A DNA stretch of 64,000 nucleotides from a virus (IMGVR_UViG_3300037692_000137:32001-96000), one strand, 5' to 3'; counted from the first letter of the stretch, positions 2,526 through 27,723 are shown. Program-made: numbers and translations. The notes: generated by a model from the letters alone, not told the origin.

Positions 2526-2611
2526 TGGAGCCTAGAGAGGGATTCGAACCCCCGATGTGTTTTACCACGACAGCTTACAAAACTGCTGCTATACCCCTTA
2601 GCGATCTAGGC
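2526..2611 (-). tRNA. tRNA-Thr(UGU) with an unusual long variable arm
   Basis: Acceptor GCCTAGA/TCTAGGC, U73, encoded CCA; anticodon loop TT-TGT-AA; T-loop TTCGAAT; 16-nt variable region. Confidence 0.85.
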
Positions 2612-2639
2612 CTATATATATATTAAAGTTAGTTAAAGC

Positions 2640-2714
2640 TGGGAGCAGCGGCAGGACTCGAACCTGCATAACCAGGGATATGAGCCCTGTGAGAAGCCAT
2701 TTCTCAACGCTGCG
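2640..2714 (-). tRNA. Initiator-type tRNA-fMet(CAU)
   Basis: C1xU72 mismatch, A11-U24, anticodon stem CAGGG/CCCTG (three G-C pairs), loop CT-CAT-AT, encoded CCA. Confidence 0.88.
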
Positions 2715-2725
2715 TCACATTTTTA

Positions 2726-3028
2726 TTAGCCGTTCCTCAAAAAGAACAAATGATTAAAAAATTCAAAATTTATTTTTTGAAGATACTCAGAGGGTGATTC
2801 AATGTCAAGACCCAGCTGGTCAGCTATTACCTGAGTCATTACTTCATCCTGTAAGTACTGCTGATTAAAATTGTAAAATTCATACAAGTCTTCATCAGAT
2901 AGACTCTCCATGTGTGCCTTCCATGCCCCTTGACAGGTAACACAGACATAAGCAGAGTTGTCGTTGTTATTAATACAATTAGGGTCTGAACATTCAGGGC
3001 GAAAATCTAAATAATCTGGTGCTATCAT
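2726..3028 (-). CDS. Hypothetical protein (Cys-containing N-terminus)
   Basis: ORF track, 100 aa; SD-like GAGG upstream. Confidence 0.55.
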   Translation of the reverse strand: MIAPDYLDFRPECSDPNCINNNDNSAYVCVTCQGAWKAHMESLSDEDLYEFYNFNQQYLQDEVMTQVIADQLGLDIESPSEYLQKINFEFFNHLFFLRNG

Positions 3029-3068
3029 GTGTTAGTCCTCGGTAAGGTTATGTTTAATGCTATTAAGC

Positions 3069-3323
3069 TTATTTACCATAAGTTAACATGTTTGGTAGTA
3101 TTTCATCGTTATTAGACATTGAAACCAGTTCATCTTCTAAAACCTGTGTCCAATATGGTTTACTTCGTAAATAAGATATAGCTGCTGCATAGTCACGCCC
3201 TACCCCCAATTCTTGTGCTACTTCTTGAACTCTACCACAAAATACTCTGTGGTTATTAACAGCTGCTGCGTCTAATGTTACCAAGGACTCATTTATCGTA
3301 GGCATACTTTTAAACTCCTTCAC
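3069..3323 (-). CDS. Hypothetical protein
   Basis: ORF track, 84 aa; directly downstream of a consensus promoter. Confidence 0.55.
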   Translation of the reverse strand: MKEFKSMPTINESLVTLDAAAVNNHRVFCGRVQEVAQELGVGRDYAAAISYLRSKPYWTQVLEDELVSMSNNDEILPNMLTYGK

Positions 3324-3367
3324 TTAGTTTTTAATAATTCTTAGCCTTAATTACCAAACTGGTTAAT

Positions 3368-3396
3368 AGTATAACATACATTAACTGAGTTGTCAA
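3368..3396 (-). promoter_or_regulatory. sigma70-type promoter
   Basis: TTGACA-17nt-TATACT with extended -10 TG. Confidence 0.8.
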
Positions 3397-3399
3397 TAG

Positions 3400-3837
3400 C
3401 TACTTTATATTTAATTCAATGTCAATAGTGTTTAAATAAGATGTATACTCATCTAAACTATTTAAATTATTTAATAACTCATTATGCTTTTTACATTCTT
3501 TTATGTGTTTGTAAGTACCATCACAGCGGCAGGTTCTACCACATAGCTTACAATCGCAATAATCCACCGGATAATTACCTTCAATACCCCAGCTACCTCC
3601 GTTATAATATTCATATCTGGTTTCAGTATTTTCAAAAAGTAGCACGCGTAATCTTCTAAAAGCTACATTCTCAGGGTAATTATTAAATAGCTCATGTGAC
3701 CAGTGCGGGACTAACTCTTCTATAATAGCATTTTGTATATGGTCAGGTAAAGAGTCAAACATTTTTACTACTATATCTTTAAGCGTTGCTTGTGCAAACA
3801 ATGTTTCTTTTGTGGGTATAGCCATGATTAACCTCAA
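3400..3837 (-). CDS. Hypothetical protein with Cys cluster
   Basis: ORF track, 145 aa; CDCKLCGRTCRC. Confidence 0.6.
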   Translation of the reverse strand: MRLIMAIPTKETLFAQATLKDIVVKMFDSLPDHIQNAIIEELVPHWSHELFNNYPENVAFRRLRVLLFENTETRYEYYNGGSWGIEGNYPVDYCDCKLCGRTCRCDGTYKHIKECKKHNELLNNLNSLDEYTSYLNTIDIELNIK

Positions 3838-3841
3838 GTGT

Positions 3842-4093
3842 TTAGTAATCTACTGTGTAGCTTTCAACAAATAATATGGACCTAATTGGTATTAACATAG
3901 TATCTACTTCTATAAAAGTATTATCATTATTATGATCCGCTATTACTTCTAATGGGTTACAATTTTGATTCCTGGATCTACCTGAATTACGTGAAATAGA
4001 TAAATAAGTACATGTAGTGCCTAGTAAATCTACTTTTAACCCATTAAGTAATACTAATCTATAAGCGTACATTCCATAACTCCTTATTATCAA
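3842..4093 (-). CDS. Hypothetical protein
   Basis: ORF track, 83 aa; AAGGAG SD, overlaps upstream stop. Confidence 0.55.
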   Translation of the reverse strand: MIIRSYGMYAYRLVLLNGLKVDLLGTTCTYLSISRNSGRSRNQNCNPLEVIADHNNDNTFIEVDTMLIPIRSILFVESYTVDY

Positions 4094-4302
4094 ACTTTAA
4101 TTGGATCTGGCTCTTTTAAACCCCAACATTCTAATTCGTACTCATATAAATAGCCTATCACTTCTTCTGGCTCGTTAGGATGCTCTAATTTAATTTCTTC
4201 TAATGTTTTAGGACGGTATTCTCCAGGCTTATCCCCGTAAGCTTGTTTCATTAATGTCTCATCTCGTGCTTCACATAAACGCATAAACCAGTTTTTAATC
4301 AT
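4090..4302 (-). CDS. Hypothetical protein
   Basis: ORF track, 70 aa; AGAGG SD. Confidence 0.55.
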   Translation of the reverse strand: MIKNWFMRLCEARDETLMKQAYGDKPGEYRPKTLEEIKLEHPNEPEEVIGYLYEYELECWGLKEPDPIKV

Positions 4303-4319
4303 ATTAGCCTCTTTAAATC

Positions 4320-4426
4320 ACCCCCTCCTCCAAAGTCTGCCGTAGTCACTCGACTTCGCTCTGATATGTAATCAGAACCGGGATGTTTATCCCGCTAAGG
4401 AGAAGGGTTAAGTAAGGGGGTTGTTG
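4320..4426 (-). ncRNA. Candidate multibranch structured RNA directly 3' of tRNA-Tyr
   Basis: Closing helix CCCTTCTCC/GGAGGAGGG enclosing hairpins CGGGAT-AAAC-ATCCCG, TCTGA-TTACATA-TCAGA and AGTC-GAGT-GACT. Confidence 0.4.
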
Positions 4427-4513
4427 TGGAGAGAGGAGGATTCGAACCTCCGGGTTCAGCACAACGGCGGTGGTTTTACAGACCACTCCCTTCAACCGCT
4501 CGGGCATCTCTCC
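4427..4513 (-). tRNA. tRNA-Tyr(GUA), CCA not encoded
   Basis: GGAGAGA/TCTCTCC acceptor, loop CT-GTA-AA, long variable arm, followed by CAA. Confidence 0.92.
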
Positions 4514-4546
4514 ATTTTTATGTTTAGTAGCATAGCATAAAATTAC

Positions 4547-4834
4547 TTAGCCGTCAATAGTTTCTTTTAATATTAAAGTTTCTAATAATGGCGGCAATTG
4601 ATTAAAAGAATTTAAAACTACCTCCCCAGTAGCTACATTTTTTGTTTCTATATACGTAGAATACGTAGTACCTCTATTAGAGCCTGCGTGTTTAATTGGA
4701 ACAGAAAATGTTATTTTATCTCCAATTTTTAGATCTTTAAATAAACGGGCCTTAGTTTTACGTAGAATTTTTGCTACTACTAATATGTTGCTTTTTAATA
4801 GTATATCATTCATTTTATACTCCTTAATAAACAT
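4547..4834 (-). CDS. Hypothetical protein
   Basis: ORF track; likely true start MNDILL behind AAGGAG. Confidence 0.55.
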   Translation of the reverse strand: MFIKEYKMNDILLKSNILVVAKILRKTKARLFKDLKIGDKITFSVPIKHAGSNRGTTYSTYIETKNVATGEVVLNSFNQLPPLLETLILKETIDG

Positions 4835-4861
4835 ATTACTTTATTGTGGTATATGTTTATT

Positions 4862-4890
4862 AGTATACCATACGCTGTAATCATTGTCAA
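4862..4890 (-). promoter_or_regulatory. sigma70-type promoter
   Basis: TTGACA-17nt-TATACT with extended -10 TG. Confidence 0.8.
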
Positions 4891-4891
4891 C

Positions 4892-5395
4892 CTAAAATCT
4901 TTTTGGTATTAAATTAGGGTTGTCCGGTCTATTAGCCATTATCTCCGTAAGCTTGGTAAAAGATACGGGATAAAAATTATTGTTATCTACACCAACATCC
5001 CAACTCTTACCAATAGGCGGTAGTTTGCCATGACTGTGCCCGTAAAGATTCCAACTATTATAGTGACTCGCATTCCATACTCGTAAACTATAATGAGAAC
5101 AAACTATCTTCTGTCCTTCAATAGTACGTTCCCAAATATCACCATAGAATTTATCCTTTTTATGGTCGTGATTACCGCGAAGAAAGACGTGGCTACCATT
5201 AAGTTGTCGCACATATTTCTCACGTGGCTGAAAGCTAAAATCACCGACGTGGATAACCACATCCCCATCCTTAACTACTTCATTGTGTCTACGTATAATT
5301 TCATCATTCATTTCTTGCACATCTTTGAAAGGCCTATTTAAGTACCTAATTATGTTACTATGCCCGTAGTGGCAGTCACCGCTAAAAAAATACAT
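4892..5395 (-). CDS. Calcineurin-like metallophosphoesterase
   Basis: DCHYGH, GDFS, GNHD, SH, GHSHG motifs. Confidence 0.88.
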   Translation of the reverse strand: MYFFSGDCHYGHSNIIRYLNRPFKDVQEMNDEIIRRHNEVVKDGDVVIHVGDFSFQPREKYVRQLNGSHVFLRGNHDHKKDKFYGDIWERTIEGQKIVCSHYSLRVWNASHYNSWNLYGHSHGKLPPIGKSWDVGVDNNNFYPVSFTKLTEIMANRPDNPNLIPKRF

Positions 5396-5398
5396 AGC

Positions 5399-6034
5399 TT
5401 AATACCTCATCCATTGTTTCTTTTTTTTAGTACAATCTTTCCAACAAGTAGTATGAGAGTCACCTCTATGCATATCATCCCACGAGTTTGGTAAGTTCTT
5501 TACATTCCTACAAGCTCGCACATAGGGGTTACACCCACAACTTAGCCGGCGTTCTTGTGTTGTTTTGGGGCGCTTATAGTATTGATTAAAATGCCACCTT
5601 CTTTTTCTTGTATAAGGAACAGGCCCATTACGAAAACCTAACCATTCATACTCTTTAAACCTGTTACGTTTAGTATACTTTTTAGGCACATAATTGTCAA
5701 GATCTTTTTTTATTTTTTCTGTGTTTATTACCCTAAAATTAGCATCTAATAAGATAAGCTCTATCTTATCTTTGACATCTTTACCTAACCAACCACCAGG
5801 CTTCTCAGGAACAAAGTGGATGTAGGTGTCATTCCAGTTGTTGCCAATGTTTTGTGATAACACCGTAGCAATACTTTTTGGGCGAAAATATTCACGTAAT
5901 GTTTTTCTGTTAGGATCAAGCCATTGGCGTTTGCGGTATCTAGCTAATAAAAAGTCTGCGTAAGATTTGAACTCCTCATAGTTGTTATCCCTATCAACCA
6001 AATAAACTCTTACATCTTTATTAATTGTGTGCAT
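5399..6034 (-). CDS. Basic hypothetical protein
   Basis: ORF track, 211 aa; C-terminal LPNSWDD...CWK..KKKKQW; AAGGAG SD. Confidence 0.65.
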   Translation of the reverse strand: MHTINKDVRVYLVDRDNNYEEFKSYADFLLARYRKRQWLDPNRKTLREYFRPKSIATVLSQNIGNNWNDTYIHFVPEKPGGWLGKDVKDKIELILLDANFRVINTEKIKKDLDNYVPKKYTKRNRFKEYEWLGFRNGPVPYTRKRRWHFNQYYKRPKTTQERRLSCGCNPYVRACRNVKNLPNSWDDMHRGDSHTTCWKDCTKKKKQWMRY

Positions 6035-6115
6035 TTAGACTCTCCTTTAAGTTAAAGTTAATAAACTTAAAGGATGTCTTGTACGTAATAGTATAGTATT
6101 TTATGTTTCATAATA

Positions 6116-6352
6116 TTAATCTGTCTCTAATAGTAAATTTGTATAGTAAACTAATTCTTTTTTTACTCCGGCCATATAACAACCCTTACCATGTCTACCA
6201 TCTATACTTATTTGTACATTTGTTTTGTCACACCCTTTACAAAAAGGATATGGATTAGGGGGTTTGGTGTACCATGAGTCATACAATTTACTTTCTAATT
6301 TACGCACCCTATCTTGTAGCCTCTCGCGTGTACTCATATGGTTGGCCTTCAT
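6116..6352 (-). CDS. Hypothetical protein
   Basis: ORF track, 78 aa; AAGGAG SD; CxxC. Confidence 0.55.
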   Translation of the reverse strand: MKANHMSTRERLQDRVRKLESKLYDSWYTKPPNPYPFCKGCDKTNVQISIDGRHGKGCYMAGVKKELVYYTNLLLETD

Positions 6353-6407
6353 GTTAACTCCTTTAGCGCAGTTTATTTAACTCAAAGACAGTGTGCTTAT
6401 GAATCAA

Positions 6408-6493
6408 TGGCGGAGGAAGTAGGATTCGAACCCACGGAACTTTCGTTCAACGGTTTTCAAGACCGCCGCCTTCAACCACTCGGCCATTCCTCC
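6408..6493 (-). tRNA. tRNA-Ser(UGA)
   Basis: GGAGGAA/TTCCTCC acceptor, G73, CCA, loop CT-TGA-AA, long variable arm. Confidence 0.95.
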
Positions 6494-6500
6494 TGCTCAG

Positions 6501-6548
6501 TATAATATAGGCTACTAGAGTCTAACCCCTCTAGTAGCCTATATTATA
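6501..6548. terminator. Perfect 20-bp inverted repeat downstream of the cytochrome gene (terminator or processing stem)
   Basis: TATAATATAGGCTACTAGAG-8nt-CTCTAGTAGCCTATATTATA. Confidence 0.6.
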
Positions 6549-6575
6549 TACTTAATTACCTATTAACTTACATAA

Positions 6576-7370
6576 TTACTTTGTTGTATGGCATCTGGTA
6601 CAAGTGATATTACGTTTTGCATGTGTATCATGAAGTCCGCTATTCCAAGTTTTCCTACTGTGGCAGGTGCTACATAAGTTTTGCCACGGAGTCATAATAA
6701 AACCAGTAGGGTCAACGGTACCTGTATCCGGAGTAGGGGTAGTGCCTGTGTCCTCGTCAACTCCATCTTTTACTTCACCCGAGCCCACTTTAACGTGACA
6801 GTCCAAGCAGCCCTGATGTATAAGGTATTTCTCTTTCTTAAAACCAGGCGTTGCATGTGGATAATGACACATTTTACATGTTATAATATCCCCCTTTAGC
6901 AGTACAGCGATACCTCCTCCAGACACAATATCGTCACCACTCATTGGGTCTTTAACAAACCCCCCATTTCCGTCAGCTACTTTTCTACCATTAAATAAGA
7001 AGTCGTATTGAGCACAGATAAACTTGTCGAATGCAACCACCGAATCCTTCCCATTATGACAGCCTCTGCATACACCAACACCCTCACGCTTTACTCTCTC
7101 ACCATGATTTACTCCGTGTGCGTTGCCGGGTGATGGTAAAAACTCAGTAACAGTTGAACCTGAGTCTGGACATTCTGGACAAACGGGGTCCGGACATTCT
7201 GGACAAACTAGATCTTTGCATTCCTCGCACGGAGGACACTCCTTAACTTTCTTTTCTTGTTTATAAGACTCTCTATCGCGTTTATGCTCATCATCCTTAG
7301 CAATAGACGTACCCACCACCATAAAACTAAAACAGATTAAGATTGTTATGATACTTAACAATTTATTCAT
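6576..7370 (-). CDS. Secreted multiheme (five CxxCH) c-type cytochrome
   Basis: Sec signal MNKLLSIITILICFSFMVVGTSIA; CRGCH, CKMCH(YPH), CLDCH, CSTCH, CTRCH; six additional His; GGAGG SD. Confidence 0.9.
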   Translation of the reverse strand: MNKLLSIITILICFSFMVVGTSIAKDDEHKRDRESYKQEKKVKECPPCEECKDLVCPECPDPVCPECPDSGSTVTEFLPSPGNAHGVNHGERVKREGVGVCRGCHNGKDSVVAFDKFICAQYDFLFNGRKVADGNGGFVKDPMSGDDIVSGGGIAVLLKGDIITCKMCHYPHATPGFKKEKYLIHQGCLDCHVKVGSGEVKDGVDEDTGTTPTPDTGTVDPTGFIMTPWQNLCSTCHSRKTWNSGLHDTHAKRNITCTRCHTTK

Positions 7371-7510
7371 GCGTTCCTCCTTTGTTTTGTAATTATTTAA
7401 ATAGAGTTTATGTTGTTCCTATCCATACCAACGGTTAGTTTGTTATGAATAAGCATTAAATCCTGCTTCTAACTATAGGTAGCTTACTTAAAACGTTAAG
7501 TTACAGGTTA

Positions 7511-7538
7511 AGTATAACACATTTAAAAATATTGTCAA
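7511..7538 (-). promoter_or_regulatory. sigma70-type promoter upstream of the cytochrome gene
   Basis: TTGACA-16nt-TATACT; the -35 box overlaps the TGA stop of the radical SAM gene. Confidence 0.6.
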
Positions 7539-8482
7539 TTGCTTTTAAGCTTTTTAAGTAAAAATTGTCCACATGCTGCTTTTATCTCTGATCCAGTAGA
7601 CACCTGATATTTTAATTTATTAACACTTTTTGAAAGTGTATCTACTATAATATTAAATTTCTCCGACTCTTTAAAAGCAGAGCCCCCACAAGAATTAAAA
7701 CGTAAAATACGCAATTCCTTATTATGATTAATTGGACTAGTCATAAAAGTAATAAGCCCTTTAATCTCTTCTAAGTAGTCATTACGTAGGTGTAAAAAAA
7801 CCTGGTGATATATTATGTCTACACCAGCTAATGCTGAAAGAGTACTTAAATCAGCCACAGCATTTATTATAGGTACGGTACCAGGTATCAAATTATTACG
7901 TGTTTTTTGAAAAGTAGAATGTAATGAATAGAATAACCTAAAAGGGCTTCTACCATCAACGTGTTCTGGATTAACATCATACACTTTTAAAGCTGAGTTC
8001 AAGTCTATAAATTTATTAAAATAAATATTTTTTACATTAGGGTATACAGTAGATAAGTCTACTCCATCCAAACCTTTTGCATAACCATTAGCAAAAATCC
8101 AGTTAAGTACGTTTATAGAAACCTGGTATACAATATCCCCATGAGGTAAAGCGTCGCCCATACCCATCCAGGAAAATTTTATATACTTATCTTTAAGTTC
8201 AGGTTTATGTGCTACTTCTGCCGTTATTGCATCTTTAACATTTTGCTCTATTTGTTTAGCAGTTAATTTTGTATAACCACATTTCTTTAATGTTAGGTAA
8301 CAAAAAGCACAATTCATAGCACACCCTGCTGATATAGAAACAAACACAGAGTACTTATTCCTAGCTGTTGCTGTTACACCAACTATGTTATTACAAGAAC
8401 TTACGGTTTTTATAGCGGTTTCTGAGCCGTCGTTATGTATGTACTTAGTCACTTGATTGTCCTTTGTTCTATAAACTTCCAT
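7535..8482 (-). CDS. RlmN/Cfr-like radical SAM protein
   Basis: VSISAGCAMNCAFC (CxxxCxxC), MGMGDA, SLHS, C-terminal IKAACGQ. Confidence 0.85.
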   Translation of the reverse strand: MEVYRTKDNQVTKYIHNDGSETAIKTVSSCNNIVGVTATARNKYSVFVSISAGCAMNCAFCYLTLKKCGYTKLTAKQIEQNVKDAITAEVAHKPELKDKYIKFSWMGMGDALPHGDIVYQVSINVLNWIFANGYAKGLDGVDLSTVYPNVKNIYFNKFIDLNSALKVYDVNPEHVDGRSPFRLFYSLHSTFQKTRNNLIPGTVPIINAVADLSTLSALAGVDIIYHQVFLHLRNDYLEEIKGLITFMTSPINHNKELRILRFNSCGGSAFKESEKFNIIVDTLSKSVNKLKYQVSTGSEIKAACGQFLLKKLKSN

Positions 8483-8609
8483 AAGTAAACACCCCCGCCC
8501 TAACTATGGTTATTAATAAAAAAACGGCAGAGAAAAGTGGCTAAACTATTTTTTGATTTCTGATTAATAGTCAGAATGAAGTAAGTATAGCCTACACTAC
8601 TGTCGTTTG

Positions 8610-8684
8610 CGCTGTGTACAGGATTCGAACCTGCGAGTTGCCGACTAGAAAGGCCGGTGTCTTAAACCACTTGACTAACACAGC
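8610..8684 (-). tRNA. tRNA-Glu(UUC), CCA not encoded, U37
   Basis: GCTGTGT/ACACAGC acceptor, G73, loop CT-TTC-TA, followed by CAA. Confidence 0.85.
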
Positions 8685-24528: not shown

Positions 24529-27500
24529 TTATTGTTCCTTACCACAAGTAGCACACACTAAATTTTGTCCATACTTGCCGCCGGCATCAAACTTAAATTC
24601 CTGACCACCACAACCACCCTTATCTTTATCACAGGTGCCTTTCATCCAACAGGCTGATATAAGCGCATCAGTTTCCATTGGAATAATTTTAAAGTACATA
24701 TTAAAACCATCCTTTATTGCTTGCTCTACTATCTTTGCAACTTCATATCTATATTCGTAGTCGCACTCAACAATTAGCTCATCGTGTACAGTTAAAAGTA
24801 ATTTAGCATAGTAGGGTAACACTTCTAAACGTTCTACAAGAAAAATCATGGCCTGTTTAATAGTGTCGGCATTCGAGTTATGTACCACCACACCATTGGC
24901 TGTAAAATAATGTATTTTATCACACATTAAATCATACGTATCTTCTACACCTCTATAAGTTAAAGAGGTAGCTTTACAAAAGTCAAAGTTTAAAAATTGT
25001 TCTAAATATTTTTTTTCTCTGCCTTCTGGTAATCTAATATAAAAGTGACGCCAACTGTAAAAAGAGCATTTACCTAATTTAAAGCGCCGCAAGTGTGCCT
25101 TTTCGGTAGAGGTAAATTCTGATAAGTAATTATCTGCTTTTCTTAAAGTTGCTTCTATTAATTTAGGTATAAATTCAGGCACCATACTGCCGTCACCGCA
25201 TCTTGGTGTATTTAATGCCATATTTAAAAGTTTACTTTTATCTAAAACCGAAAAACCTATCAACTCTTTAAATTGTTTATTAAATCTTTTAGGTATTTGA
25301 ATTCTATAAACCAACTCTCCGTTTTCACTATACTCCTTAAGATTAGAGTTTATGCCTAAGGAAAACAAAAGTTGCTGAATAGACTCCGCAAGCGCTTTTG
25401 AACTTGTTGTGTAGTTTGGACCACTGTTTTTCGTCATACCACCATCAGTAGAAAACAGTCCATTTAATAAAGCACCCTTGTTTTTTAAAGTCTCTGTATA
25501 AAAATAATCGGGGATGCTCTTATATCTCGCTGTAACATAATCCAAACCTACATACTTTAAGAAACCCCTTATAACAACGGAACTAGCTTGTGCCGTATAT
25601 AAAGGAGTAGTTCTATTTTTATATACAGTTCTTACAATAGGTTTGTAATTAAACACATTAAATACATAAGAATTGAATTTGTCGAATAGTTCTTTTTGGT
25701 ATTCTGGACAAATAAAACGTATATGATTATGTTCAGTATAATTACCATCACCAATTAAGCAGCCAATAATAAAAGCAAGCTCTTTTGACATCTCTTTAGG
25801 TGTAGTCTGTTCTTTATAGGTTTCTCGCCAGTGCTTTTTTTCATAAGTATACCCTGATAAATCGGACACCTTACCATCAATGGTATTCAACGGGATTAAA
25901 AAGTAGTCTTCATTTAATTTTATATTTTCTACTGCTTTTTCCTCAACACCATTTTCCGTAATCACAGGAATTTTGTGTTCTAATGTTATACCTAAATTAC
26001 TACCATTGGAAAGTTTTAAATCATACACTTTTTTCTTGCCTGAGTAAACACCTACAGCCGTATCCTTACCAAAACCAGTTTCCAAGGGTACTTGAGTGTT
26101 CACATAATTACCAATACTTCCTAACCCATTTATCTGACTGTCAAATACTAAACAACCCTGAATAGGCGCGTTCTTTGCCTGCCTTTTAACACCATTAATG
26201 ATAAATTTTCTATCTGGTGAGTCATACTTAGGTATGTCATAGAATCGTTTACGTCCTATAATAGTCTCACTATATCCTTTCCTTACGGCCTCATTAGATA
26301 AGTCTTCTAACCACTGCTTAATTTTAGGAAACATAGTAAAGTAATTAAGCATTAAGCGCTCGGCCTTCTTTTCTGATATCTTTAATCTACGACTCAAACC
26401 AAACTTGGAAAGACCATAGGCTAAACCGAAAGTAATCGCCTTTGAAGCTTTACGTTGTTCTTTAGATACCTTTTCATACTCTACATTAAAAACACCTGCT
26501 GCGGATTTAGTATGTAAATCAATACCGTCCAAGTAACAAGAAACAAACACGGGATCTTGTGACATATTACCTATGATACGTAGTTCGGCGCCGGACATAT
26601 CTGCGGTTATTAAAGCACAGCCTGGTTTAGCTATGAAGCAGCTTCTATAAATTTGTTTACCTGGTATATTTTGTAGGTTTGGGTTAGAGCTGCTTAGCCT
26701 ACCAGTTTGCATTAGTTGCTTAAAATCTGTGTGCAGTCTACCTGTAGTTGGGTGAATTTTATCCAGCAACGGTTGTCCATAAGTAGAAATAAGTTTTTCC
26801 GCTTTTCTATAAGCTAATATATTATCAATTACATTGACACCAGCGTACTTCTCAAGCTCCTCAACTGCCGTACCTTCAACCTCGATACCGTATTTTTTAA
26901 GTGCCTCCTTAAGCTGCTTAGGACTATCTATATTTATTAAAGATACACCAAATAACGTTGTTTGGTTTTCAGTAGCATCTAGTGTTTTTGTAATTTGAGC
27001 ATGGAGTTCATCTTTCTTTTTAGCTACTTCCTGCATAATCAAAAGCCAGCGCTCCGTATTAATTGTAATGCCGTTTAATTCCATCTCAGCCATGGGCTTG
27101 ACGAAATCAAATTCTAACTGACATACCTTCTCTAACGAGTGTTTAGCCACAGACAGTAATTGAGCATCACGTATTACACCTAAAGTACAAACGTCTAATG
27201 CCGCATACTCAAGTTGATAGTTTTGAAAATCCTGCTCATAGTCTGAGAAAGTACCACGAGGCTCTTTGTCCATAGCAAGCCCTAAATACCTTTGCACTAA
27301 TACGGATAATGCCGCTTTAACATAGGGTCTGCCGAGGTTTATCAGTTGTTCGGCTAACATTGTATCATATATATTGTTTATATAAAAGTTATAATGATGT
27401 TTAATCATTTTAACATCGTACAAAGCATTTTGAAGTAGTTTTAATTTAGTCCTATCTTCTAAAAGGTCCTTAAACAGCGATATATCAAATTCACTTTTAC

Positions 27501-27723
27501 CTATATCCTTTCTAATATCAAAAACAAAGGGCTGCCCTTGTACACCTAACTGTAATAAAACGAGCTTACCGTCAAAAGGAGATAAAGAGGTACCTTCTGT
27601 ATCTACCTCTATCATCTCAAATTGATTGATGTAGTCCAACGCGGCCAAGGCATCATCAAGTTTATTAATGTAAGTATACTTAGGAGCCGGCAATTTAGCA
27701 ACACTTTTATCAAAAACACCCAT
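24529..27723 (-). CDS. polA: Family A DNA polymerase (3'-5' exo plus pol, no 5'-3' exo) containing an intein
   Basis: DTEGT, YAALD, TGRLSSSNPNLQNIP, ADMSGAELRI, RKASKAITFGLAYG, NAPIQG|S.AD, LTVHDEL. Confidence 0.95.
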   Translation of the reverse strand: MGVFDKSVAKLPAPKYTYINKLDDALAALDYINQFEMIEVDTEGTSLSPFDGKLVLLQLGVQGQPFVFDIRKDIGKSEFDISLFKDLLEDRTKLKLLQNALYDVKMIKHHYNFYINNIYDTMLAEQLINLGRPYVKAALSVLVQRYLGLAMDKEPRGTFSDYEQDFQNYQLEYAALDVCTLGVIRDAQLLSVAKHSLEKVCQLEFDFVKPMAEMELNGITINTERWLLIMQEVAKKKDELHAQITKTLDATENQTTLFGVSLINIDSPKQLKEALKKYGIEVEGTAVEELEKYAGVNVIDNILAYRKAEKLISTYGQPLLDKIHPTTGRLHTDFKQLMQTGRLSSSNPNLQNIPGKQIYRSCFIAKPGCALITADMSGAELRIIGNMSQDPVFVSCYLDGIDLHTKSAAGVFNVEYEKVSKEQRKASKAITFGLAYGLSKFGLSRRLKISEKKAERLMLNYFTMFPKIKQWLEDLSNEAVRKGYSETIIGRKRFYDIPKYDSPDRKFIINGVKRQAKNAPIQGCLVFDSQINGLGSIGNYVNTQVPLETGFGKDTAVGVYSGKKKVYDLKLSNGSNLGITLEHKIPVITENGVEEKAVENIKLNEDYFLIPLNTIDGKVSDLSGYTYEKKHWRETYKEQTTPKEMSKELAFIIGCLIGDGNYTEHNHIRFICPEYQKELFDKFNSYVFNVFNYKPIVRTVYKNRTTPLYTAQASSVVIRGFLKYVGLDYVTARYKSIPDYFYTETLKNKGALLNGLFSTDGGMTKNSGPNYTTSSKALAESIQQLLFSLGINSNLKEYSENGELVYRIQIPKRFNKQFKELIGFSVLDKSKLLNMALNTPRCGDGSMVPEFIPKLIEATLRKADNYLSEFTSTEKAHLRRFKLGKCSFYSWRHFYIRLPEGREKKYLEQFLNFDFCKATSLTYRGVEDTYDLMCDKIHYFTANGVVVHNSNADTIKQAMIFLVERLEVLPYYAKLLLTVHDELIVECDYEYRYEVAKIVEQAIKDGFNMYFKIIPMETDALISACWMKGTCDKDKGGCGGQEFKFDAGGKYGQNLVCATCGKEQ
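24877..26154 (-). mobile_element. Intein (426 aa) with LAGLIDADG endonuclease in PolA
   Basis: Starts CLVFDSQ, ITLEHKI, IIGCLIGDG, LNGLFSTDG, ends YFTANGVVVHN, +1 Ser. Confidence 0.93.

Follow-up and report, generated by a model that had tools for sequence, protein, structure and literature searches.

A phage-encoded pentaheme c-type cytochrome, predicted to be secreted, from a family seen so far only on phage DNA

The gene described here encodes a five-heme (pentaheme) c-type cytochrome with a predicted export signal and lies on what is, by its gene content, the genome of a tailed phage. The stretch analyzed (the window) comprises 64,000 nucleotides, bases 32,001-96,000 of the 234,228-bp record IMGVR_UViG_3300037692_000137, a linear IMG/VR virus record from a sediment metagenome with a CheckV completeness of 89%. 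On the minus strand of the window, an ATG-started open reading frame (ORF) at positions 6576-7370 encodes a product of 264 aa, designated P0001. Profile searches place P0001 in a small family seen only on phage DNA, a finding that goes beyond an earlier reading made without database searches (the sequence-only reading). The preferred interpretation, in which confidence is even rather than strong, is that P0001 is a Sec-exported, soluble periplasmic electron carrier or wire that is matured by the host and acts in the host respiratory chain.

The pentaheme cytochrome and the phage genome that carries it

The five CxxCH motifs of P0001 begin at residues 101 (CRGCH), 165 (CKMCH), 188 (CLDCH), 233 (CSTCH) and 257 (CTRCH). 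Among the 776 stop-to-stop frames of at least 60 aa in the whole 234-kb record, eight contain a single CxxCH and only the P0001 frame contains more than one; because the other frames reach one motif at most, the cluster of five is not attributable to chance. The N-terminus, MNKLLSIITILICFSFMVVGTSIA followed by KD, was judged by inspection to have a basic n-region, a 17-residue hydrophobic core and an S-I-A cleavage-type site, and residues 1-24 (7299-7370, minus strand) likely form a cleavable type-I signal peptide, with cleavage between SIA and KD. A similar N-terminus with an AxA-like site was present in every full-length family member. A multiheme c-type cytochrome is recognized by at least two CxxCH motifs in an exported protein; with five motifs, and export predicted by inspection, P0001 bears out its description in the sequence-only reading as a secreted five-heme c-type cytochrome. 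That reading had also counted six further histidines, enough for bis-His ligation. Indeed, 12 histidines are present, five in the CxxCH motifs and seven elsewhere, and six of these seven (H85, H89, H172, H185, H247 and H250) were invariant in four close homologues, the seventh, H29, lying in a variable linker. The Paired_CXXCH model search that it had recommended returned a match to Pfam PF09699 (Paired_CXXCH_1) at residues 165-194 with 27.5 bits, above the gathering score of 20.6. Against Pfam PF14522 (Cytochrome_C7), P0001 remained below the gathering score (19.3 versus 24.8 bits).

Beyond the signal peptide, P0001 is organized into two heme domains and two linkers, all encoded on the minus strand. 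A charged, Cys-rich spacer (residues 25-73; 7152-7298) with CPPC/CPEC repeats and seven non-heme cysteines leads into the three-heme core (residues 74-200; 6771-7151), which carries hemes 1-3 at C101, C165 and C188, the distal His candidates H85, H89 and H185 (and H172), and a lone conserved cysteine, C119. Hemes 1 and 2 are separated by a beta-rich insert of approximately 60 residues. A flexible linker rich in Pro, Thr and Gly and variable in alignment (residues 201-227; 6690-6770) joins the core to a two-heme C-terminal module (residues 228-264; 6579-6689) of the form CSTCH-x9-H-x2-H-x6-CTRCH, in which C233, H237, H247, H250, C257 and H261 were invariant in the close homologues. The mature protein is best read, from these predicted features, as a soluble periplasmic pentaheme cytochrome c of approximately 24 kDa.

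By its gene content the record is that of a tailed phage, neither chromosome nor plasmid, because a terminase large subunit (Pfam Terminase_6N; phrog_2, E 3e-26), a portal protein and a major head protein are encoded on the same contig, as is PhoH. The phage gene context perceived in the sequence-only reading was therefore correct, and these virion genes on an IMG/VR virus record answer its concern that the contig might prove to be a host chromosome or plasmid. Genes of the window with PHROG matches include those for a family-A DNA polymerase (PolA), a class II-like ribonucleotide reductase (RNR), DnaB helicase, methyltransferases and glycosyltransferases. Almost all long ORFs of the window lie on one strand, and the G+C content is flat (33-39% per 2-kb bin across the window, cytochrome region included). 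Five tRNA genes (Thr, Met, Tyr, Ser and Glu) are interspersed with small genes at 2526-8684, and the cytochrome cassette lies inside this region. Homologues of CcmC/F, ResB and CcmE were not found in the phage, so heme attachment would have to rely on the host, in agreement with the need for host machinery that had been anticipated.

A sister phage carries the orthologue P0002, which is 86% identical to P0001 and was recorded in 45 collection blocks, on contigs of up to 237 kb. The same gene order was found in more than 20 independent sister-phage contigs (JGI, ENA and Logan): an RlmN-like radical-SAM gene, the cytochrome, a 211-aa gene and a phosphoesterase, an order that holds for every contig read in which those flanks are present. 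The sister phage occurred in groundwater and soil metagenomes of several studies. In a 152-kb sister record, the cytochrome is on the same record as a PolA 93% identical to that of the window; a terminase was not found in the sister-phage fragments, those records being only 20-58% complete. A further orthologue, P0003 (59% identical), comes from a jumbo phage that is more distantly related (264-kb contig). Its neighbors differ: the cytochrome is preceded there by DUF1353 and caspase-like Peptidase_C14 (E 6e-23) genes (L008:4527-5933). A DUF1353 gene was also observed near a three-heme family member on another contig (L027).

The cytochrome gene is under strong purifying selection. Between P0001 and the sister orthologue, dS was 0.40 and dN 0.030 (dN/dS 0.075), and in more distant orthologues, where synonymous sites are saturated, 55-60% of residues are kept. 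In addition to the six histidines named above, the five CxxCH motifs, C119 and the block of residues 136-160 (GGFVKDPMSG..I.SG.GIAVLLKG) were invariant in the four close homologues. Both linkers, the CPxC-rich spacer and the Pro/Thr linker, evolve by repeat expansion: in the sister phage, the spacer contains a 33-nt x2.5 tandem repeat and the Pro/Thr linker (ACCCCT)x5, and the window copy is without tandem repeat. Spacer length varies among homologues, and P0004 is without the CPxC spacer and has no Cys in that segment.

A cytochrome family encoded on phage DNA

A profile of the conserved core, searched against 1.84 billion cluster representatives (approximately 15 billion proteins), retrieved only 21 proteins at E <= 1e-3. 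Most of these relatives are of approximately 175-210 aa and consist of a signal peptide, a short spacer usually with one Cys pair, and a three-heme core corresponding to P0001 residues 80-200. In the window protein and its close kin, a two-heme module is added through the flexible linker, and with two such modules P0006 reaches seven hemes. Copies of the two-heme module also form C-terminal repeats in two large multiheme proteins, P0013 and P0023, the former encoded on a 2-kb contig of NCBI genome assembly GCA_030695585.1 (37% identity over the module). Across 16 divergent members, H85, H89, the three CxxCH motifs, G128 and D141 were invariant and C119, H185, G136, G151 and G187 nearly so; Paired_CXXCH_1 was matched by 14 of the 16. 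In the three-heme relatives P0015 and P0017, both on short contigs, a very long repetitive spacer of up to approximately 250 aa with VPGPEVIVEVPGETVYVD repeats was observed between the signal peptide and the heme core.

Phage hallmark genes adjoin nine of the ten relatives with informative neighbors, the tenth (P0010, L031, adjoining an RNR gene) being ambiguous. In unrelated phages the genes occupy moron-like positions: overlapping the end of the portal gene (P0009, a three-heme gene, L030); ahead of scaffold, Phage_capsid_3 and SU10-type adaptor genes (P0007, L022); between GH19 endolysin/DUF1353/HNH genes and a P22-type portal plus capsid (P0020, on the 69-kb contig L027); past Mtd_N tail-fibre genes and ahead of a GH108 endolysin (P0005/P0021, L028); and, in a lambda-like temperate phage, between the endolysin and integrase genes (P0025, on the IMG/VR contig L033, 57% GC). 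P0006 lies past virion and tail proteins near an SbcCD-like nuclease (L026), and P0004 shares a 4-kb contig with a Tad2-like gene (L014); other members are on contigs shorter than 2.5 kb. The GC content of member contigs ranges from 35 to 65%. The interval from the lysis genes to the integrase of a temperate phage is a classic place for lysogenic-conversion genes, and the position of P0025 fits an accessory function that benefits or modifies the host. On the small high-GC phage contigs L030 (87-3136) and L022 (1-1163), the three-heme gene lies within the head-morphogenesis module, directly behind the portal gene or overlapping it, where an exported redox protein would not normally be expected.

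A recognizable chromosomal context was not found for any family member. Two pattern scans of 185,579 GTDB species genomes yielded no true member among the matches listed; the sole GTDB match listed (L032) was rejected as an unrelated 723-aa Flavobacteriaceae multiheme-TPR protein. A tblastn search of INPHARED phages gave no match, and the ESM Atlas returned only generic multiheme clusters with scores below 0.9. On present evidence from these searches, the cytochrome family appears to be phage-restricted, with no cellular orthologue found. Such a restriction suggests that phages maintain, for use in the host periplasm, electron carriers of their own. Of the two features by which an auxiliary metabolic gene (AMG) is recognized, the window gene has the first, a position inside a bona fide phage genome flanked by phage genes; the second, a clear host homologue with a defined metabolic role, was absent, none of the 21 relatives lying in a recognizable cellular context. 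The sequence-only reading had envisaged an undescribed auxiliary metabolic system; no description of the family was found in the literature, but the gene stands alone as a single cassette and does not form part of a system.

Expression signals, proposed role and alternative explanations

The cytochrome gene is preceded by a putative sigma-70-type promoter (7511-7538, minus strand; TTGACA-16 nt-TATACT with a TG extension, 11/12 matches in the scan), which overlaps the end of the upstream RlmN-like gene and whose -35 and extended -10 boxes recur unchanged, flanks included, in the sister phage (L002 and L018). A 5′ untranslated leader of approximately 130 nt (7371-7510, minus strand) was read from the sequence and contains a Shine-Dalgarno (SD) motif, GGAGG, at 7376-7380, 5 nt before the ATG, that is conserved in L002 and L018. 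Between promoter and SD motif, the leaders of the window phage and the sister phage differ by a 24-29 nt indel. A riboswitch in the leader was considered and rejected, as no Rfam family matched and the leader fold was not significant. The stop codon is followed after 28 nt by a perfect 20-bp hairpin with an 8-nt loop (6501-6548, minus strand; -31 kcal/mol, z -6.5), just before a tRNA-Ser gene. The sister phage has a hairpin in the same place with another stem sequence (-28 kcal/mol, z -8.0) and a similar loop of the GGTTAGAC type, so that structure, not sequence, is conserved. The hairpin probably serves to terminate transcription or to mark a site of RNA processing; as it has no T-run, the latter may apply rather than intrinsic termination. 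Promoter, SD motif, ORF and hairpin are therefore read as a self-contained, moron-like cassette. The adjacent tRNA-Ser(UGA) gene (6408-6493, minus strand; ARAGORN, and Rfam tRNA with 59.9 bits), conserved in L002, is context and not part of the cytochrome gene.

The upstream gene (7535-8482, minus strand), situated among the tRNA genes, encodes a distant RlmN/Cfr-like radical-SAM RNA methyltransferase with CxxxCxxC and a C-terminal AACGQF motif (TIGR00048, E 1e-13, far under the cut-off), and a Thg1-like gene adjoins it in sister phages. A tie between this radical-SAM neighbor and heme chemistry was rejected on account of that assignment. Elsewhere in the window, PolA (24529-27723, minus strand; 1064 aa) contains an insert of approximately 426 aa (residues ~524-949) matching Intein_splicing and LAGLIDADG_3. 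The 639-aa PolA of sister phage G001, 93% identical, is without the insert, which looks like a mobile intein polymorphic between sister phages.

The best phage matches of RNR and PolA, at approximately 30% identity, were to crAss-like, Bacteroides and uncultured huge phages. This lead to a Bacteroidota host was rejected: SD-like motifs precede 53% of ORFs of at least 100 aa against 4% in the background, and the promoter is of the canonical TTGACA/TATACT form. Translation and promoters differ in Bacteroidota, and these signals argue for an SD-using host with canonical sigma-70 rather than a member of that phylum.

Most likely, the sigma-70-type promoter that the cassette contains would be used by host RNA polymerase; export of the apoprotein via Sec would follow, with cleavage of its signal peptide and attachment of five hemes by host Ccm or Ccs. 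All five hemes are predicted to be low-spin and bis-His ligated because five conserved distal histidines are available for five hemes, H85, H89 and H185 for the three core hemes and H247 and H250 for the two-heme module, with H172 (in CHYPH) as an extra, less conserved candidate. Low-spin bis-His hemes in multiheme cytochromes are typical of electron transfer, not of substrate binding. Since the hemes are predicted to be all bis-His, the protein would be a two-domain soluble wire or shuttle that takes and passes on electrons in the periplasm rather than a substrate-binding enzyme. It would connect quinol dehydrogenases of the inner membrane with acceptors in the periplasm or outer membrane, and the benefit to the phage would be that electron flow, and hence energy supply and redox balance, is kept or re-routed during infection, or during lysogeny in temperate relatives.

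Several observations weigh against this role as an electron carrier. AlphaFold2 models of full P0001 (4-sequence alignment) and of the core (19-sequence alignment) reached predicted local distance difference test (pLDDT) scores of only 32.5 and 61.5, respectively, with values below 50 in the Pro/Thr linker and the best (74-87) in the beta-rich insert. A Foldseek search of these models against the PDB and AFDB clusters returned nothing meaningful, as would be expected because a heme-dependent fold was modelled without hemes. Among the sequencing runs listed for the sequence, none was of RNA. No redox gene was found consistently adjacent to family members. Classical AMGs are recent copies of host genes, and the lack of a cellular orthologue in the searches above points, tentatively, to a function particular to phages and not merely to a boost of metabolism. 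Finally, the near-invariant lone C119, together with an in-frame TGA in one relative, suggests redox chemistry beyond plain electron transfer.

The last of these points leads to the main alternative, a redox enzyme, which is considered unlikely and in which C119 (possibly selenocysteine in one relative) would be a heme ligand or catalytic nucleophile. Candidate substrates would be compounds of selenium or of sulfur (for example polysulfide, thiosulfate or persulfide), by analogy with multiheme enzymes that carry selenocysteine or a His/Cys-ligated heme, and sulfur cycling is common in the groundwater and sediment habitat. C119 is present in at least 90% of the 16 divergent members, although Leu takes its place in P0015 and P0017. 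On a 12.8-kb phage contig, a pentaheme homologue (L028:6890-7594) is one reading frame broken by a single TGA at 7163-7165 that aligns exactly with C119 (DKFICAQYDF versus DKFL-stop-SQYDF). An alternative genetic code on this contig was rejected, as TGA ends several of its genes and other long genes are without in-frame TGA; a random one-step nonsense mutation would fall on that codon with a probability of 1/86. L029 carries the same TGA and is identical to L028 over 4.5 kb, and the two are probably one sample. An in-frame UGA aligned with the cysteine of homologues, the mark of a selenoprotein gene, is thus a property of the L028 relative and not of the window gene. The TGA is either selenocysteine or a recent nonsense mutation, and the former is doubtful: at this UGA there was no match to Rfam SECIS and only an overlapping 7-bp hairpin that was not significant (z -1.3), and no further TGA-truncated relatives were found, which leaves the TGA in one lineage. 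A precedent for the enzyme exists in the pentaheme selenoprotein MccSep, likewise split at UGA in annotation (PMC13510729). Against it, the conserved histidines suffice for bis-His ligation at every heme, and P0001 has no sequence similarity to any solved enzyme.

Manipulation of the host envelope is decidedly unlikely as the function. Here the protein would dock, in the manner of MtrA, into porin-cytochrome conduits or other heme partners and would mask receptors, giving superinfection exclusion or protection of progeny, or would dissipate or adjust the membrane potential and thereby set the moment of lysis. In favor, the family has turned up on phage DNA only, in phages of widely differing type (GC 35-65%), its genes often adjoin lysis or late structural genes, and its nearest solved relative, MtrA, inserts into the MtrB porin. 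This case is built on context, with no partner identified; a mere plug would hardly warrant the cost of five to seven hemes kept under strong purifying selection, and the window gene, with its host-type promoter, is found not in a lysis module but in the region of tRNA and nucleotide-metabolism genes. Multiheme proteins can store charge, and a heme or iron sink or redox buffer, acting as a periplasmic capacitor or scavenger of reactive oxygen species or nitric oxide without a defined partner, would be consistent with the high heme density and the absence of adjacent partner genes. This function is very improbable, as the conservation of non-heme surface residues and the presence of the beta-rich insert suggest specific interactions. 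An artefact or non-phage DNA, whether a chimera, a host chromosome fragment or a passenger gene in decay, has been largely refuted and is given almost no credence. The exact sequence occurs in one run only, and a Logan contig encoding the identical protein (L034) stops approximately 110 nt past the cytochrome stop codon, near the hairpin and tRNA-Ser. L034 is probably from the same sample as the window, its break is probably located at the long hairpin or the tRNA, and short-read assembly of this region appears to be difficult. Set against this are the sister-phage contigs, whose recurring flanks dispel the fear of a chimeric assembly raised in the sequence-only reading, together with the uniform GC content, the low dN/dS, the virion genes on the same contig and the sister record linking the cytochrome to PolA.

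A bolder proposition, rather improbable as a whole, is that varied tailed phages (jumbo, P22-portal podovirus-like and lambda-like temperate) maintain an ancient secreted family of three-, five- and seven-heme proteins without cellular counterpart, with a redox-active Cys and, in one lineage, selenocysteine; this would be a phage-specific periplasmic redox device including the first phage-encoded selenoprotein. In anoxic aquifers and sediments, multiheme cytochromes drive the cycling of iron, sulfur, nitrogen and metals. Should phages supply such proteins themselves, infection could alter the amount and destination of community electron flow, and metagenome cytochrome counts would partly reflect viruses. 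A phage-only cytochrome family would also suggest that phages have their own need for periplasmic redox control and do not just borrow host metabolism. The protein is small and predicted to be soluble, which suits standard cytochrome expression hosts, and the possible selenocysteine/Cys site offers a handle on its chemistry.

Comparison with known multiheme cytochromes

Judged by profile matches, P0001 is in no named family beyond the generic Paired_CXXCH_1 domain. P0001 alone gave no match to PDB sequences. The family profile, searched against solved structures, matched best to 6r2q_A (E 5e-7) via repeated paired-CxxCH units, followed by NrfA and NrfH segments (E ~0.01). We take 6R2Q to be the Shewanella MtrCAB complex with MtrA as chain A, the molecule name in the file being wrong. 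Consistent with this match, the NCBIfam DmsE/MtrA decaheme model TIGR03508 gave sub-threshold matches in all 16 members (best E 2.9e-10); P0001 is not a member, with 12.4 bits against a cut-off of 192.2 and five hemes against ten. With MtrA and DmsE it shares predicted secretion, paired CxxCHxPH-(~15)-CxxCH units and bis-His hemes (predicted here), but it differs in its beta-rich insert, its lone conserved Cys, the lack of a porin partner gene nearby and its encoding by a phage.

Scattered weak matches in the family were to GSU2203 decaheme, TmcA, NrfH, NrfB, CctA and c7 models. P0001 matched neither NrfB model (TIGR03146 and PF22678), and two or three distant relatives did so weakly (E ~1e-3). 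NrfB, cytochrome c7/PpcA and CctA/STC are small soluble periplasmic bis-His carriers, as is proposed for P0001, and NrfB also has five hemes; in contrast to these, P0001 is encoded outside an nrf operon and has two domains joined by a Pro/Thr linker. The NapC/NirT models (PF03264 and TIGR02161) did not match P0001, and just one relative reached E 0.019. NapC/NirT proteins combine an N-terminal membrane anchor with a tetraheme domain, whereas the signal peptide of P0001 looks cleavable.

A host-like NapC/NirT-family multiheme cytochrome has been described in amoC-phages (preprint, bioRxiv 10.64898/2026.06.18.733297), and phage soxD has been reported in addition to this and the Borg cytochromes. 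The rarity in tailed phages on which the sequence-only reading had remarked is therefore no longer a lack of precedent, but the literature search found no description of the window family or of any phage-restricted multiheme family. In both cases c-type cytochromes dependent on host maturation are carried by tailed, partly jumbo, environmental phages. The amoC-phage genes look like recent acquisitions because they group with homologues of the predicted hosts, whereas for the window family no cellular orthologue was found among the 1.84 billion representatives and the GTDB matches listed; moreover, the NapC/NirT cytochrome is membrane-anchored and P0001 is predicted to be soluble. Multiheme cytochromes are also known from Borgs and other archaeal extrachromosomal elements (PMC9605863, PMC11208441), likewise large mobile genetic elements of groundwater and sediment. 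Borgs are archaeal and non-viral and carry large, host-like cytochromes, whereas the window represents a bacterial-type tailed phage, as indicated by its SD sites, sigma-70 promoter and terminase, portal and HK97-type head matches, and encodes a small, phage-specific cytochrome.

The pentaheme selenoprotein MccSep of Geobacter sulfurreducens, a periplasmic polysulfide reductase mis-annotated as two ORFs split at UGA (PMC13510729), resembles P0001 in its five hemes and in the periplasmic location predicted for the latter; it has a functional selenocysteine/Cys site, and its UGA-split annotation is paralleled in the L028 relative. It is a 49-kDa tetrameric enzyme of another family with unrelated surroundings of the selenocysteine, and the window protein has Cys, not selenocysteine. 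Taken together, the best reading of these comparisons is that P0001 would work like the small periplasmic bis-His shuttles and the MtrA-type wires.

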